NCBI GenBank assembly: GCA_947259495.1
Contig: CAMYLV010000005.1
Span: 55,401-119,400, forward strand
Reading direction: 5' to 3'
DNA: 64,000 nt
From: an uncultured Desulfobacterales bacterium
Lineage (GTDB): Bacteria > Desulfobacterota > Desulfobacteria > Desulfobacterales > JAHEIW01
Shown here one piece after another: positions 25,408 through 57,381 of this stretch (positions within the stretch are counted from its first letter, which is position 1; each line of letters opens with the position of its first letter). Under the pieces are notes generated by a model. The model worked only from the letters and a program-made list of their open reading frames with translations, was not told the DNA's origin and searched no databases. The position numbers were made by a program, and so were the translations under genes.

Positions 25408-26793
25408 TTAAGCGGCTTCGGTCCGGCCTAAATCGATCTCCAAATTGACGCCGTATTTTTTTATCCGCTTCCAAACAGTCACCCGGCTGACACCTAATAT
25501 TCGCGCTGCTTCGGATTGATTACCGCCGACCTGACGCAGCGTATCAATCAGCTTTGTTCGTTCTTTTTCCCATGCCGCAGAGCTTTGCTGCCGTCGCATT
25601 TGAGGTCTTTTGCTGCCGGCTGTAATTTTGGGTGGCAGATGCTTCACGCCAATCCAATGCCCCGAACACAAAACAAACGCATATTCGATGGCGTTGCGCA
25701 ACTCGCGAACATTACCCGGCCAGGAATAGGTGAAAAGGGCCTCCATGGCTTCAGGCGTCAGACCGACGATTTTTTTACTGGATTTTGCGGCGTTTTGCTC
25801 AATAAAATTTTGGACGATAAGGTGGATATCATCGAGCCGCTCCGAAAGGGGCGGACATTTGAGGGGAAACACGTTGATGCGAAAAAACAGGTCTTCGCGA
25901 AATAATTCCTGGGCGATAAGGTCTTCGAGATCTTTGTTGGTGGCGGAGATAATCCGCACATCCACCGGGATCGGTTTGTGATCGCCGACTCTTTCGATTT
26001 CCTTTTCTTCCAGGACCCGCAAGAGCTTCACCTGGATACCCGGCGGTATATCGCCGATTTCATCTAAAAAGATGGTGCCTTCATGGGCGGCTTCGAAACG
26101 ACCGATGCGTGTCCGGTCAGCGCCCGTATAAGAGCCCTTTTCATGGCCGAAAAGTTCACTTTCCAGCAGGTTTTCATTCAGGGCAGCGCAATTTACTTTA
26201 ATAAACGGTTTGTCTTTACGGGGGCTGTCTTCATGAACGGCCCGGGCAACCAGCTCTTTACCGGTGCCGCTCTGGCCATGGATTAAAACCGGGGCATCTG
26301 TCTGGGCCACATTCTCGATGAGCTCAAAAAGGCGCTGCATCGTTAGTGATTCGCCCAGCAGTCCGTGGTGCTTGTCTTCAAGCCGACAGCTTTTGCGCAG
26401 GGTTAAAATTTCCTGCTCCTGACGCACGATTTCAGAGATGTCGGTTAGGGTTTCCACCGCACCGATCATCTGCCCGTCAGCATCTCTGAGCACGGTCGCA
26501 TTTTTGACAACATGCAAAGCGCGCCGGTCTTTTCTGGAGATCAAGCATTTCTTGGCGGTGACGATGCCTTTTTCATACAGGCTGCACCACTCCACACCGT
26601 AACCACGCCCGTACAGTTCGCAGCCGGTGCAATTCAAGATGGTGCAATTTTGACCGACCAATTCATCGGCTGAATAGCCCGTAAGCCTTTCAGCCGCAGG
26701 ATTCATTGCCAGAATATTACCCTCCGGATCAATTACCATGAGGCCGTCTTGTAATGTATCAACAATGGTTTTCCAGTGTTTACCTATTTCCAT
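25408..26793 (-). CDS. PAS-containing sigma54-dependent enhancer-binding protein (Fis HTH)
   Basis: Walker [24 protein letters not shown] (GAFTGA variant), [25 protein letters not shown]. Confidence 0.95.
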
Positions 26794-26981
26794 CAGCATG
26801 GGCTCCTCTGATGCAAAATTCGTGCGCTGATTAAATCAGGCGAAGCATTTATTTGTTAGAAAGCCGATAAAATCAAAAAAAATTGAATCCTGTTTGCATT
26901 CCGACTTACAGATTCAAACATTTAGCCGATTGCATCAATAATGTTGTTATATTCAAAAAGTATTAACCGCAATGCGTAAAT

Positions 26982-27030
26982 TGTTAACTCTGTTAACCTT
27001 TGATGTGTTAACTTAACAATCAATGTTAAC
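26982..27030. promoter_or_regulatory. Array of four TGTTAAC sites (candidate activator UAS, distal)
   Basis: Exact TGTTAAC at 26982, 26991, 27006 and 27024. Confidence 0.65.
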
Positions 27031-27366
27031 AATTGCAATGGCAAAAATGCTGCGAGTCGAATTATTCAGGTGTCTTTTTTGACAACACCCGTGTACGCCG
27101 TTTTTTATTTTAAGTATTTTATATTATTACTAATTTATTTATTGCGAAGGTTTTCGGGCGATACCCTTTGAGTTTTACAGCACCCACAGCCTTGAACAAG
27201 GAATATACTTCCACAACGGATAGCCACAAGCAATGGTATGAAAAGGTTGGAATTAAGAAATATCCTGTCGCCTCAGCGAGGCATAACCCAACGTTTTCGT
27301 GTGCTTTTGACCGTTCTGTTGCCTGTAAGACTGATGTTGGATAAGGCGCAAACGCCGTGTTTAAAG

Positions 27367-27396
27367 TGTTAACCTGTTAACTTGACACATGTTAAC
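27367..27396. promoter_or_regulatory. Array of three TGTTAAC sites (candidate UAS, proximal)
   Basis: Exact TGTTAAC at 27367, 27375 and 27390, about 95-120 bp upstream of the -24 box. Confidence 0.7.
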
Positions 27397-27488
27397 ACCA
27401 TCTTTCCCAAATTGCATTTCAAAAATGCTTAACAGAAAAATATATAAATATTTCAGTATATTAATATTTTACTGCAGCTGTGGCTAAT

Positions 27489-27504
27489 TGGCATGGGGTT
27501 TGCT
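27489..27504 (+). promoter_or_regulatory. sigma54 -24/-12 promoter
   Basis: TGGCAT-GGGGT-TTGCT with GG/GC at the canonical 12-bp offset, upstream of the operon and divergent from an EBP gene. Confidence 0.85.
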
Positions 27505-27621: not shown

Positions 27622-27966
27622 ATGATTCGTAAAATAATTGTAACCACGATGGCCCTGTTTTTTGTGTTTTCAACATTGGGTATCAGTTTTGCTCTGGATA
27701 AAGGCAACAAGCGCAAAGGCAAATACACGTATCGCAAAGTCTACAAAGCGTGCTTTGAGCGCGGTGCCGTTGATTCTCAAACGCCGCCGATCAGCCCGGC
27801 CGATAAGTCCCAGGCCGAGTGGGAGGCTATTTTTACCAGCAAAGATTATACTCAGTTCGGATGTGAGGAAGAGTGGGGTAATCTGGATGGTACCCAGGTC
27901 ACGGATATCTACACCTATTTATACGAGCATGCGTCGGATTCACCCACGCCCGCCAAATGCAAGTAG
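27622..27966 (+). CDS. Small exported cytochrome-c-like protein lacking CXXCH
   Basis: Signal peptide; GNKRKGKY, ISPADKSQAEW and HASDSPTPAKCK pattern; YKACF where CXXCH is expected; AGGAG SD. Confidence 0.75.
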   Translation: MIRKIIVTTMALFFVFSTLGISFALDKGNKRKGKYTYRKVYKACFERGAVDSQTPPISPADKSQAEWEAIFTSKDYTQFGCEEEWGNLDGTQVTDIYTYLYEHASDSPTPAKCK

Positions 27967-28042: not shown

Positions 28043-29203
28043 ATGCGGATTAAAAGATTAACAGCCATATCCATGATGCTGTGCCTGATAATGGTGCTCG
28101 CGCTTGGATGTGCAACCACGAATTCGACTCCCGATACCGCCAAGACAGACAAAGCGGCGGACTGGAAGTTTCACAGCATCGTCGATGTCGACTTTGTCAT
28201 GAAACAGGTGAAGGTGCCGATGCCGGAAGATGTGATGATCATCGATGCCCGGCCCAAACGGGCCAAGTATGACAAAGGGCACATCCCCATGGCCGCCAGC
28301 ATTCCGGACAGCCAGTTTGATAAGATGACCGCCAAGCTGCCGGCGGATAAAGATGCGCTGCTCATTTTTTATTGCGGGGGGCCTACCTGAAAGCTGAGTC
28401 ACAAATCCGCCTGGAAGGCGGAAAAACTCGGTTATACCAACGTTAAAGTTTTTGCCAACGGATTCCCCGCATACATGAAAGTAGCCGGAAACTATCCGGC
28501 TGTGTCAGCAGATTGGGTCAAAAAACAGATCGATCAGAAAACCAATTTGGTGATGATCGATTCGCGTCCCAAGCGTAAAAAGTACGACAAAGGTCATATC
28601 CCAACGGCCCTGAGCATTCCGGACAGCCAGTTTGCTAAAATGCAGGACCAGCTGCCAGCGGATAAAAGCACCCCGCTGGTATTTTACTGCGGCGGGCTGA
28701 AGTGCCGCTTGAGTCACAAGTCCGCCAAAAAGGCCATCGATCTGGGTTACACCAAGGTCAAAGTATTTGCCGAAGGGTATCCGGCCTGGGTTGCAGCTTA
28801 TGGTAAAGGTGAGACAGCAACCGTGGCATCCGCCAATGCGGCTTCTTCAAATCAGCTCAAAGCTGGCAAGGAAGAAGGCAGTGTCGATACCGAAACGTTT
28901 AAAAAGATCGTCAAGGATAATCCTGATAGCATTATGCTGATCGATGTGCGCGATGCGGATGAATACACAGAAGGTTCCTTTAAAAGCGCTGTCAATATCC
29001 CGGTGGATCAACTCGAAGCTAAAATTAAAACGCTGCCGATCGATAAACCAATTGTGTTTGTCTGCGGCACCGGTGCGCGCAGCGGCGAATCTTATTATAT
29101 GGTACAGGATTTGAGACCCGAAATGAAAAATGTCTATTACCTGGAAGGGGAATTGACATTCAAACAAGATGGCTCTTTCGAGATCAAAGAGCCGGCATCC
29201 TGA
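28043..29203 (+). CDS. Triple rhodanese-domain lipoprotein, probable selenoprotein (Sec116)
   Basis: ORFs 28043-28390 and 28475-29203 are in the same frame. The TGA at 28388 aligns with the Cys of domain 2 (FYCGGPT*KLSHKSA vs FYCGGLKCRLSHKSA). Downstream hairpin; lipobox LGC. Confidence 0.88.
28396..28429 (+). promoter_or_regulatory. Bacterial SECIS-like hairpin
   Basis: GAGT..TCCGCC-TGGAA-GGCGGA..ACTC; upper stem starts 15 nt after the TGA; G in the apical loop. Confidence 0.7.
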
Positions 29204-29310
29204 TAGATGCGATTTCTATTTATTAGGTGCTGCAGCCGTTCCGGCAGGAACGGCTGCAGCCGAATCACCTGCTACTTTCTGATAGTGTCTACCGAGAGTT
29301 GGAGCGAAAA

Positions 29311-30954
29311 ATGGAAATAACGGAAAAGAAACATCCGCTTTTAATATACATCGTTTTATTCGCCTTTGGCCTGATGCTGATGCCAGCTATTGCTGCTGCG
29401 GCAGGGTCCAAAGATGAGCAGGCGCCGGGACGATCGATGGCCCAGCAGGCCACTAAATCCAAAAAGTTATGGCGGACCTCCGATCACGCCAAGCATAAAG
29501 TTCTGCAAAAAGATTTTGCATCCGGTGCCGAATTGACCCAGGCGTGCATCTCCTGCCATTCTGAGGCCGAAACCCAATTTCACAAGACCATTCACTGGAC
29601 GTGGCTGGCGGACCCGGCTGAAGAAAATAGACAATACGGGAAGGCCGGTAACTCACTCAACAATTTCTGTATCTCAACCAATAAAACGGTTGATGCAGGC
29701 TGCTTATCCTGCCATCCGGGCTGGGGCAACACCAAAGAAAGCGCGGTCAACTGCCTGGTCTGCCACAGCCAAACGAAAATGAACTTTGATGAAGCCATAA
29801 CCGACATCAAGGGATTTCTTGAAGAAGGCGATGATGAGTCCAAGGAGATAGCGCGCGAAATTCAGGCTGAGCTGCGTGACGCCGCCCAGAACCTCGGCCT
29901 GCCGGCGCGCCAAAATTGCGGTTCATGCCATTTTTTCGGCGGCGGCGGCGACGGTGTCAAGCACGGTGATCTGGATACATCTCTGGTCAAGCCCAGTAAA
30001 ACCCTGGATGTTCACATGGGGGTGGACGGCCAGAACTTCACCTGCACCCGCTGCCACACCACAACGCTGCACAATATTTCCGGACGTGTCTACACGCAAC
30101 CGGCGGCCACCGATCGCAAAAGTCTGGTGGAGGATGATCTGACCAACAAGATTACCTGTGAATCCTGCCATACGGACCAGCCCCACAAAAGCGGCCAGAA
30201 GATGAATGAGCACACCGACAAAGTGGCCTGCCAGAGTTGTCACATACCCGATTTTGCCAGGGTGAATCCCACCAAAATGTCCTGGGACTGGGCAAAGTCA
30301 GGCAAGTTAAAGGACGGCAAAAAATTTAAGACCAAAGACGAATTTGGTAAATTTGACTATATGTCCATCAAAGGCCAGATGAAGTGGGCCAAAAATGTTA
30401 AGCCTGAATATCACTGGTATAACGGTGTGATTAAATCCGTTACCGCCAGCGATAAGATCGATCCGGCCGGAACCGTAAAAGTTTCCTGGCCGGTGGGTGA
30501 TCGGCAAGATGCCAATTCGCGCATTTATCCGTTTAAGGTGCACATAGGAAATCAGCCGTATGATAAAATGCATCAGACCTTACTGATGCCGCTGCTTTCC
30601 GGCAAGCAGGGCTACTGGAACCACCTCGACTGGGACACAGCGCTGTCAGTCGGCCAGGCTTCCATGGATTTGCCGTTTTCGGGCGAATTTGATTTTGTCG
30701 AAACCGCCTACGTTTTTCCGATCACGCACATGGTAGCCCCCAAAGCTAAATCCCTGTCCTGCACGGAATGTCATTCCAAAACCGACAGCCGCCTGGCACA
30801 TCTGAAGGGCTTTTACATGCCCGGCCGTGATGTTTCCAAAATTCTCAACTTTGCCGGCTGGGGTGCGGTTCTGGCCAGTTTGATCGGAGTCCTCATTCAT
30901 GCGCTGGGGCGGTTCTTGAGCAGAGGTAATGGCAAGAACAGAAAGGAAGATTAG
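29311..30954 (+). CDS. Octaheme c-type cytochrome (octaheme tetrathionate reductase family)
   Basis: Eight CXXCH motifs: CISCH, CLSCH, CLVCH, CGSCH, CTRCH, CESCH, CQSCH, CTECH; signal peptide and C-terminal TM. Confidence 0.9.
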   Translation: MEITEKKHPLLIYIVLFAFGLMLMPAIAAAAGSKDEQAPGRSMAQQATKSKKLWRTSDHAKHKVLQKDFASGAELTQACISCHSEAETQFHKTIHWTWLADPAEENRQYGKAGNSLNNFCISTNKTVDAGCLSCHPGWGNTKESAVNCLVCHSQTKMNFDEAITDIKGFLEEGDDESKEIAREIQAELRDAAQNLGLPARQNCGSCHFFGGGGDGVKHGDLDTSLVKPSKTLDVHMGVDGQNFTCTRCHTTTLHNISGRVYTQPAATDRKSLVEDDLTNKITCESCHTDQPHKSGQKMNEHTDKVACQSCHIPDFARVNPTKMSWDWAKSGKLKDGKKFKTKDEFGKFDYMSIKGQMKWAKNVKPEYHWYNGVIKSVTASDKIDPAGTVKVSWPVGDRQDANSRIYPFKVHIGNQPYDKMHQTLLMPLLSGKQGYWNHLDWDTALSVGQASMDLPFSGEFDFVETAYVFPITHMVAPKAKSLSCTECHSKTDSRLAHLKGFYMPGRDVSKILNFAGWGAVLASLIGVLIHALGRFLSRGNGKNRKED

Positions 30955-30957
30955 AGC

Positions 30958-31623
30958 ATGACTATCAACAACGGAAAAATGAAAAATATATATCTCTATG
31001 CGCGCTTTGAACGGCTGTGGCATTGGTTGCAGACGTTGCTGATCATCATCCTTTTGCTGACGGGTTTTGAGGTCAATGGTGCCTTTACGCTTTTCGGTTT
31101 CAGGACGGCGGTGGAGGTACATAATTTTGTCGGACTGACCTGGCTGATAGCGTTCGCCTTTTTTGTTTTCTGGATTTTCACCACCGGTGAGTGGCGACAA
31201 TACATCCCGACCACCAAAAAGATGATCTCGGTTGTACGCTATTACATGTACGGCATTTTTCGGGGTGAGCTCCATCCGGTGCCCAAGCGCAAAGAGGCCA
31301 AGCACAACCCGCTGCAGCGTATCGTTTACCTGATTCTGGCGGCCATATTGCTGCCGGTGCAAATGGTCACCGGATTTTTGTACTGGGGCTATAATTCCTG
31401 GGGCGATTGGGGGCTGTCCTGGCTGTCTTTGCAGGTCGTGGCGCTGATTCACATCGCCGGTGCTTTTGCCATCCTGTCTTTTGTGGTTGTGCATGTGTAC
31501 ATGATCACAACCGGGCACACCATATTTGCCCACACCCGGGCAATGATCACGGGCTGGGAAGAAGTAGCGGATGAAGCATCCGTGGGCGACTGGGAATATA
31601 AAACCAAAGCCAAAACGGCATAG
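30958..31623 (+). CDS. Cytochrome b/b6-domain membrane subunit (PhsC-like)
   Basis: FERLWHW, VEVHNF, KHNPLQRIVY, LIH, HVYM (heme-b His pairs). Confidence 0.9.
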   Translation: MTINNGKMKNIYLYARFERLWHWLQTLLIIILLLTGFEVNGAFTLFGFRTAVEVHNFVGLTWLIAFAFFVFWIFTTGEWRQYIPTTKKMISVVRYYMYGIFRGELHPVPKRKEAKHNPLQRIVYLILAAILLPVQMVTGFLYWGYNSWGDWGLSWLSLQVVALIHIAGAFAILSFVVVHVYMITTGHTIFAHTRAMITGWEEVADEASVGDWEYKTKAKTA

Positions 31624-56742: not shown

Positions 56743-57381
56743 ATGTTCAGAATAATTATAGTATCAAAGATAATTTTATTGGGGCTGATTCTGGGGATTA
56801 CACTGAGTCAGGCATTTTCACGGGTCGTGGAGGAAAAAGGCAAAACCTATATTATCGATCGGCATGGTGAACGCTGGGATGTTACCCAGGCCGTATCGAT
56901 TGGGTTTAAGCCCCACCGATTTCAACACGGAATCGGGCGCAATGCATTTACGCCGCTCGACGATTCGCAGTTTAGCGCAGAAAACAACAGAGTGCGGCGG
57001 GACGAACGCGTTATCGGTATTGCTGAAGGTGAACGTGCCAACGCCTATGCGGTATCAAAGCTCTGGCGGCACGAGGTGGCCAACAGCCATATCGGAGAAA
57101 AGCCCGTTGCCGCGGCCTACTGACCACTGGTAAATTTAGCGGCTGTGTACAGTCGCAGGATCGACGGACGCGACATTACGCTGGTGCCTTCGGGCTGGAC
57201 CTACGACAGCACCTTTGTTTTGTACGATAAGGAAACCGGATCGTTGTGGTATCCAGATAAAAACGGCCTGAGGGGCATCCAGGGGGCCTATTTTGAGAGG
57301 CAGTTGCCGATGTTGGATTTTGAAGACACCCGCTGGGGAAAATGGCAGAAGAAGCATCCCCAATCCAGGATTATGAAATAG
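56743..57381 (+). CDS. DUF3179-family protein, probable selenoprotein (Sec127)
   Basis: ORFs 56743-57123 and 57145-57381 are in the same frame. Context is VAAAY*PL where the family has YCPL; LVLYDKETGSLW downstream; hairpin after the TGA. Confidence 0.85.
57139..57156 (+). promoter_or_regulatory. Bacterial SECIS-like hairpin
   Basis: GCGGCTG-TGTA-CAGTCGC starting 15 nt after the TGA at 57121. Confidence 0.65.

Follow-up and report, generated by a model that had tools for sequence, protein, structure and literature searches.

The window, a 64,000-nucleotide stretch of DNA from a bacterium of the order Desulfobacterales, contains a module of four co-oriented genes in which a triple-rhodanese gene takes second place. 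It is preceded by a gene for a small exported protein and followed by genes for an OTR-family octahaem c-type cytochrome and a membrane cytochrome b. The coordinates of these genes, of the putative regulatory elements upstream and of the features within the rhodanese gene are collected in Table 1.

Table 1 Features of the triple-rhodanese module in the window.
Feature	Position	Strand	Remarks
PAS-containing sigma-54 enhancer-binding protein, divergent	25408..26799	-	Probable module regulator
Putative sigma-54 -24/-12 promoter, TGGCATGGGGTTTGC	27489..27503	+	Consensus match only
Small exported 114-aa protein, cytochrome-c-like without CxxCH	27622..27966	+	First gene of the module
Triple-rhodanese gene, predicted selenoprotein	28043..29203	+	386 codons; TGA116 as predicted Sec; stop TGA 29201-29203, then TAG
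Signal peptide with lipobox LALG-C	28043..28111	+	Cys23 codon 28109-28111; agrees with PROSITE-type lipobox pattern
Rhodanese domain 1	28172..28480	+	PF00581; loop C111-G-G-P-T-U116-K; Cys111 codon 28373-28375
In-frame TGA, codon 116, predicted to be read as selenocysteine	28388..28390	+	Cys/Sec pairing in homologues; TGA in independent contigs
SECIS-like element	28392..28433	+	Lower stem 28392-28399/28426-28433; upper stem 28406-28412/28416-28422; loop GGA 28413-28415
Rhodanese domain 2	28496..28804	+	PF00581; loop C216-G-G-L-K-C221-R; Cys codons 28688-28690 and 28703-28705
Rhodanese domain 3	28862..29191	+	PF00581; classical loop C341-G-T-G-A-R-S (FVC341GTGARSGE); Cys codon 29063-29065
OTR-family octahaem c-type cytochrome	29311..30954	+	TIGR04315, 528.8 bits (cut-off 375); Pfam Cytochrome_cB
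Membrane cytochrome b, PhsC/Ni-Fe hydrogenase b-type	30958..31623	+	PF01292, 102 bits; partial thiosulfate reductase cytochrome b match

Codon 116 of the rhodanese frame is TGA, the only internal one, and the frame is otherwise open as far as the tandem stop TGA-TAG at 29201-29206. Its ATG is preceded, seven bases 5', by AAGGAGG, and no other damage to the frame was seen. An earlier reading made from the sequence only had reported a TGA at this codon with the frame open beyond it, which was borne out by reading 28043-29203. It had also anticipated that annotation would split the gene; translation table 11 indeed yields two ORFs, 28043-28390 (115 aa) and 28475-29203 (242 aa). Full-length homologues recovered by protein database search are one-piece proteins, 370-396 aa long, in which Cys aligns with codon 116.

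Pfam PF00581 recognizes three rhodanese stretches in the translated protein (157.8 bits), and the N-terminal sequence predicts that it is exported and, in this organism, lipid-anchored. The export signal described in the sequence-only reading is thus present here, but the anchor is not a family trait: the lipobox Cys is kept in 59/113 full-length homologues and missing in 54/113, near relatives included. The active-site loops of the first two domains, FYCGGPT-U-KLSHKSA and FYCGGLK-C-RLSHKSA, align exactly as had been proposed. The C221 column of domain 2 is itself TGA in a clade of orthologues with Sec in both domains (U/U), and no SECIS hairpin was found at the domain 2 Cys site of the window gene. 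Domain 3 fits GlpE/PspE models and resembles the rhodanese domains of the CoA-disulfide/polysulfide reductases 3icr and 3nta; C341, G344, R346, S347, G348 and E349 are invariant in the orthologue alignment.

In the AF2 model (mean pLDDT 80; 84-95 in the domains), residues 106-110 form a strand, 111-117 a loop and 118-128 a helix. Because of this strand-loop-helix placement, Cys111 is assigned as the canonical rhodanese cysteine and residue 116 as the last residue of the loop, and U116 is modelled where the loop of the active-site cradle passes into the helix. Loop sequence and model therefore agree with the claim that the Sec lies five residues past the canonical catalytic Cys. Assignment to PF00581 follows from the profile match and from the strand-loop-helix active site with Cys first in the loop. 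Foldseek returned generic multi-rhodanese matches only, with low TM values that are attributed to flexible linkage of the rhodanese domains. The sequence itself shows an exported protein that has three potentially active domains of two kinds, with a Cys/Sec (or Cys/Cys) pair within one active-site cradle, and that is linked to a haem chain predicted to oxidise quinol.

The source genome, a draft of 69 contigs that is 97% complete, encodes the machinery for selenocysteine insertion. Matches to selA (615 bits), selB (358 bits) and selD (359 bits) all exceeded their curated cut-offs, and a tRNA-SeC(tca) was located by aragorn on contig C10 at 107008-107105. The selD gene of the same genome has a TGA of its own in frame, at the usual C-G-U site. 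Searching 5.8 billion proteins yielded 2,927 relatives, and the best 120 listed have Cys (118) or apparent ‘W’ (2) at the codon-116 column, so that the Cys orthologues looked for are abundant; both ‘W’ homologues have TGA in their DNA, at domain 1 and at domain 2. Coding is conserved on both sides of codon 116, with invariant residues flanking the TGA in the alignment.

When stop codons were read through, the rhodanese gene was detected in 52 of the 201 genomes of the order, many copies containing one or two TGA codons. These always occupied the C+5 position, either in domain 1 alone or in both domains 1 and 2, and a TGA at the canonical Cys was found in none of the loci across the 201 genomes scanned. 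TGA occupies the codon-116 column in 38/107 orthologous loci, 22 of which also carry it at the equivalent column of domain 2; the canonical Cys is TGA in none of the 107. The best 80 named loci include 55 Cys/Cys, 10 Sec/Cys and 12 Sec/Sec forms; their sources are Desulfobacterales MAGs, Desulfosarcina, Desulfatitalea and the Olavius symbionts Delta 1, 3 and 4. A Cys/Cys gene is present in Desulfosarcina alkanivorans PL12. Sec machinery was present in every TGA-bearing genome in which it was tested.

A SECIS-like element of two stems lies just 3' of the TGA. Its upper stem (TCCGCCT/AGGCGGA) starts 15 nt past the TGA, and folding confirmed the hairpin with a G-containing loop that had been noticed at this distance. 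RNAfold gave a minimum free energy of -19.2 kcal/mol (z = -2.9), and one of 200 shuffles was as stable. Bacterial SECIS elements are expected to form a stem-loop just 3' of the UGA with an apical-loop G at roughly 16-37 nt; the loop GG is found here at 22-24 nt after the UGA.

The hairpin was compared across 170 distinct sites, of which 42 have TGA and 128 a Cys codon. Defined as at least five of six pairs in fixed register with a GG loop, it was present at 41/42 TGA sites and 4/128 Cys sites, with mean energies of -10.6 and -6.4 kcal/mol, respectively, although these statistics, including the Fisher and Mann-Whitney values, overstate independence because the sites share descent and encode conserved residues. 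An alignment of 41 distinct TGA sites showed 88.9% of cells paired, versus 26-45% when the partner was slid. In six pairs both partners change in a compensatory way; CG becomes UA or AU at pairs 21-33 and 24-30, for instance, and UA becomes CG at pairs 25-29 and 12-39. The covariation score was above all 500 shuffles. Conservation of the hairpin is in part protein-driven, because it codes for the conserved KLSHKSA-W/R-KAE. The loop codon encodes W or R (UGG/AGG/CGG) at TGA sites and mostly K or A at Cys sites, a contrast that a SECIS constraint would predict. Hairpins at similar offsets were also observed at the selD and DUF3179 UGA codons of the same genome.

The machinery, the Cys orthologues, the independent TGA orthologues and a hairpin that tracks the TGA together favour the reading of the gene as a selenoprotein gene, as originally suggested, and on this comparative sequence evidence UGA116 is very probably decoded as selenocysteine. 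It would be read by SelB and tRNA-Sec, guided by the two-stem SECIS starting 4 nt past the UGA. Were the TGA a genuine stop, the locus would specify a 115-residue fragment and a 242-residue two-domain rhodanese initiated at ATG 28475, through a split gene or programmed termination. Although table 11 gene calling produces precisely these two ORFs and an ATG is available at 28475, the 84 nt that separate this ATG from the TGA code for the family-invariant residues L118, S119, S122, A123, K125, A126, G130, Y131, V136, G140 and P142, inspection of the sequence revealed no Shine-Dalgarno motif ahead of ATG 28475, and the 242-residue product would have no signal peptide. A split gene was rejected on these three observations. 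Furthermore, the 115-residue product is predicted by the model to stop within the active-site loop, without the helix that follows, and the same TGA and hairpin occur in dozens of diverged genomes, with Sec machinery wherever this was tested. Genuine termination at codon 116 is consequently considered highly improbable.

The history of the two sites was followed on a maximum-likelihood tree of the 107 orthologues constructed with the trait columns masked. The domain 1 site changed state at least eight times, or six times if only well-supported branches are trusted, and the domain 2 site changed once. Proteins with two Sec residues group in one clade, and Sec in domain 2 only was found in none of the 107 orthologues. 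The window gene belongs to a well-supported clade of ten members, 85-92% identical, of which five have Sec and five have Cys. At least six to eight Sec/Cys switches point to selection on the site whichever of the two residues it carries.

Neither a nonsense mutation of recent origin nor an error of assembly, with the gene a pseudogene, can account for such a pattern. The draft state of the 69-contig genome and the presence of TGC at this position in close relatives (85-87% identity) are compatible with that explanation, yet TGA recurs at the identical column in the 38 TGA-bearing loci, which derive from independent assemblies, and the nearest neighbours of the window gene (L114, L019, L018 and L047) carry it too. 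The frame is otherwise undamaged, and the co-varying hairpin is specific to TGA sites. A pseudogene or assembly error was rejected on the recurrence in independent assemblies, an explanation to which we assign an even smaller probability than to a genuine stop.

None of the NCBIfam models reached its own cut-off with the triple rhodanese in a profile search, and annotation pipelines will therefore keep missing the Sec. Three models were considered individually and rejected. TsoB (NF045694) was the best match, at 115 bits against a cut-off of 805, and covered only profile positions 40-166, its rhodanese domain; the window loop is CxxxxU. The LYCAU/CxU type (NF041203) scored 87.3 bits against a cut-off of 115, and the sequence has no CxU. 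ExtH (NF040901) scored 27.7 bits against a cut-off of 200 and matched the N-terminus only.

Rhodanese selenoproteins have been catalogued since 2005, and a 2026 review counts five forms (PMC13188914). As tabulated in that review, ‘form 1’ is a rhodanese-like selenoprotein with PF00581, a UxxS motif and one Sec, exemplified by WP_010941598.1 of Geobacter sulfurreducens (Zhang & Gladyshev 2005, tabulated in PMC13188914); this entry agrees with the earlier statement that such proteins are known in deltaproteobacteria. Compared by motif only, the window protein resembles form 1 in having one Sec with x-x-S after it in a rhodanese domain (here U-K-L-S) and in occurring in the same phylum. It departs from the entry, in the form in which it is catalogued, by its three domains, OTR neighbourhood and two-Sec relatives.

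TsoB is described, in work cited by the review, as a rhodanese/DsbD fusion-like selenoprotein with UxxxxU (Haft & Tolstoy 2025, cited in PMC13188914). TsoB and the window protein share the x4 spacing and have Sec as the second member of the pair, which implies a redox-active pair in the rhodanese loop, an idea supported by fusion of the TsoB UxxxxU rhodanese to a DsbD-like thiol-relay membrane protein. The window protein, in contrast, has no DsbD-like membrane domain, carries Cys rather than Sec at the first position and is found in a different gene neighbourhood.

The FYCxGxxU loop was also found in several other rhodanese architectures when 401 genomes of the phylum were searched: one-domain proteins 135-160 aa long, proteins with two domains, three-domain proteins of other kinds and proteins of ~455 aa with an N-terminal CxxCH. 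The extended loop FYCxGxxU-xx-S is shared by many rhodaneses of the Desulfobacterota. The window gene is therefore not peculiar in having Sec at C+5, which is recurrent in this phylum. The off-canonical position of the Sec, singled out in the sequence-only reading, stands as C+5 but has precedent in these phylum-wide loops and in the UxxS and UxxxxU forms. Database entries for the related ~455-aa family are mostly fragments of 251-254 aa. A link between these CxxCH-plus-rhodanese proteins and ExtH was looked for and none was found, and a protein search with a ~455-aa relative returned no named Geobacter record.

Two-Sec members of the triple-rhodanese family are carried by Olavius symbiont genomes that were analysed in 2007, and the family was for this reason probably counted then under a general heading. 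Since rhodanese selenoproteins were already known, what is added here is a family-specific SECIS, repeated Sec/Cys switching, systematic mis-annotation of the genes and a double link to OTR and to PhsA/TtrB-like enzymes.

The only solved structure found with the C-x4-C loop type is BH2092 of Bacillus halodurans (PDB 3nhv, 3o3w), whose YCWGPAC loop is of the same kind and which aligns with the window protein over domain 1 (E 1.7e-8; Foldseek TMt 0.65). BH2092 differs in being a Cys form, cytoplasmic and single-domain; it was a structural-genomics target without assigned function. Sud of Wolinella succinogenes is a periplasmic polysulfide-sulfur transferase for polysulfide reductase, with one domain and one Cys. 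Compared by description, the window protein may be analogous to Sud as an exported rhodanese that would supply a periplasmic respiratory sulfur reductase encoded with it. To our knowledge, neither Sud nor ExtH carries Sec. ExtH is a rhodanese-like lipoprotein encoded in Geobacter beside the polysulfide-reducing selenocytochrome MccSep (PMC13510729, PMC5877670), and the window protein is likewise an exported rhodanese, encoded with a putative periplasmic respiratory sulfur reductase; with its lipobox it may be a lipoprotein as well.

The gene neighbourhood gives an indication of function. The cytochrome gene downstream of the rhodanese clearly belongs to the family of the octahaem tetrathionate reductase OTR from Shewanella oneidensis (TIGR04315, 529 bits), and its product has an N-terminal signal peptide and a C-terminal membrane helix. 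Some OTR-family members are annotated as selenoproteins; the window OTR has no in-frame TGA. The cytochrome b encoded next is probably a quinol dehydrogenase. At the other end of the module, the CxxCH motif of the small cytochrome-c-like protein is lost in 99/103 orthologues and kept in four, and one of these (L031) matches Pfam Cytochrome_CBB3.

The putative promoter TGGCATGGGGTTTGC has one mismatch to TGGCAC-N5-TTGC and lies ~120 nt 5' of the first module gene. GTTAAC-rich repeats were seen upstream of this sigma-54-type promoter. A sigma-54 activator adjoins the module in several orthologous loci, and the divergent enhancer-binding protein of the window probably regulates the module.

The order small protein-rhodanese-OTR is kept in 25/30 loci of the order. 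In the OTR-less loci L024, L025, L038, L041 and L042, the rhodanese gene follows genes for PhsA-like molybdopterin and TtrB-like FeS subunits, with an additional TorD-like chaperone in L025; all five are U/U with the exception of L024, which is U/C. Pairing with OTR and pairing with PhsA/TtrB-like subunits therefore tie the family twice to respiratory reductases that act on sulfur compounds in the periplasm. In sulfur reducers, rhodanese genes have been reported next to those for Otr/MccA-like cytochromes (PMC10376724). The rhodanese family is itself common in sulfate-reducing Desulfobacterales of sulfidic sediments.

The sequence evidence suggests that the triple rhodanese is likely to serve the reductase as a periplasmic carrier of sulfane sulfur equipped with a Cys/Sec redox pair, a functional assignment built entirely on gene neighbourhood and loop chemistry. 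A rhodanese cysteine accepts sulfane sulfur as a persulfide, and a selenolate is favoured at a helix N-terminus, Sec being reactive in exchange of the thiol/disulfide type. In the proposed mechanism, Cys111 would be loaded as a persulfide with sulfane sulfur, the donor being thiosulfate, polysulfide or a related compound. The Sec116 selenolate would then attack the persulfide so that sulfide is released or the sulfur handed on, leaving a Cys-S-Se-Sec bond. This S-Se bond, or the bound sulfur, would be reduced by menaquinol electrons delivered through the cytochrome b and the OTR-family cytochrome, and domain 3, with its classical CxxGxR loop, would act as an ordinary persulfide relay. The activity would amount to an intramolecular version of thiosulfate:dithiol sulfurtransferase, with the triple rhodanese as substrate-presenting or redox partner of a periplasmic reductase of sulfur compounds.

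Our confidence in the explanation as a whole, that a single Sec-decoded gene specifies a sulfur carrier, is good. The specific Cys111/Sec116 transfer mechanism with OTR and the cytochrome b is proposed tentatively, at slightly below even confidence. It is ranked above its main alternative, in which Sec is inserted and the substrates of the module are oxyanions of selenium or tellurium instead of sulfur compounds, through selenite/tellurite reduction, detoxification or selenium delivery, with a rhodanese perselenide as proposed for ExtH-type systems. A role of this kind is suggested by the weak N-terminal match to the ExtH model and by the Geobacter ExtH/ExtI/ExtKL cluster, which affects selenite and tellurite reduction (PMC5877670); rhodanese also carries selenium in vitro, according to a reference cited in the same paper. 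The ExtH match falls far under its cut-off, however, and later work showed the ExtKL cytochrome to be a polysulfide reductase that sulfur respiration requires (PMC13510729). The adjacency of paralogues to PhsA/TtrB-like enzymes and the wide distribution of the family in sulfate reducers of sulfidic sediments likewise count against an oxyanion role, which is judged improbable.

Independent of the mechanism, standard gene callers cut the triple-rhodanese gene and many of its relatives in two. The family also offers a natural Cys/Sec series, with at least six to eight switches, some at more than 85% identity, in which to examine what selenium adds at a resolving position beside a persulfide-carrying Cys.

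OTR is known to reduce nitrite and hydroxylamine in vitro as well. Pairing of the rhodanese with OTR and cytochrome b, and of its paralogues with PhsA/TtrB-like enzymes, provides a testable lead on the physiological role of octahaem ‘tetrathionate reductases’. A bolder and rather doubtful possibility is that the Cx4(C/U) triple rhodanese is the true substrate carrier of OTR, that the module constitutes an undescribed quinol-linked pathway and that Sec was recruited to it repeatedly. If so, the cellular substrate of OTR would be a carrier-bound sulfane, thiosulfonate or S-Se bond and not free tetrathionate, Sec would have been recruited time and again to speed the resolving step, and the four-gene sigma-54 module would serve quinol-linked periplasmic sulfur reduction or disproportionation in Desulfobacterales.

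The coordinates of the features discussed here are collected in the table below. The GTTAAC-containing repeats are likely to be bound by the divergently encoded, PAS-containing sigma-54 activator. In the small protein encoded next to the window's rhodanese, KACFERG occupies the position of CRACH in its relatives, and the CxxCH motif is missing from 99 of 103 orthologues, being kept in the four at rhodanese loci L031, L083, L109 and L123.

Features in the window
Feature	Position	Strand	Remark
Exported 114-aa protein, first module gene	27622-27966	+	Homologue of monohaem cytochrome c
GTTAAC-containing repeat arrays	26975-27040 and 27365-27400		Upstream of sigma-54 promoter
DUF3179-like ORF	56743-57381	+	In-frame TGA at codon 127 (…AAAY-U-PLV…)

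At locus L045 (genome G194, same genus), the small protein and the octahaem cytochrome (OTR) on either side of the rhodanese are 82-86% identical to those of the window. Since the rhodanese between them shares only 62% identity with its counterpart and belongs to the two-Sec clade (TGA at C+5 of domains 1 and 2), the data suggest that this gene was swapped by recombination within a conserved operon. The triple rhodaneses of L024, L025, L038, L041 and L042 are encoded not beside OTR but directly 3' of genes for PhsA-like molybdopterin and TtrB-like 4Fe-4S subunits, with an additional TorD-like chaperone gene at L025. All are two-Sec except that of L024, which has TGA in domain 1 only.

A different three-domain type was observed at L144 and L146 (G519, G470), with Sec in domain 1 (FYCGG[PT/LA]-U-PFT; ~45% identity to domain 1 of the window's rhodanese). 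Its second domain is Cys/Cys (CGGHHC), and its third is classical.

The DUF3179-like ORF is probably a second selenoprotein gene of the window; a 7-bp hairpin (-12.9 kcal/mol) lies ~15 nt 3' of its TGA.

A further distinct family of ~455 aa (L127, L131, L133, L145; phylum genomes G566, G450, G300, G526) has CxxCH and a signal peptide in addition to several rhodanese domains, of which the first carries an FYCxGxxU loop as in the window's rhodanese. Its protein database entries are mostly C-terminal fragments of 251-254 aa, and the family is therefore split systematically at the TGA.
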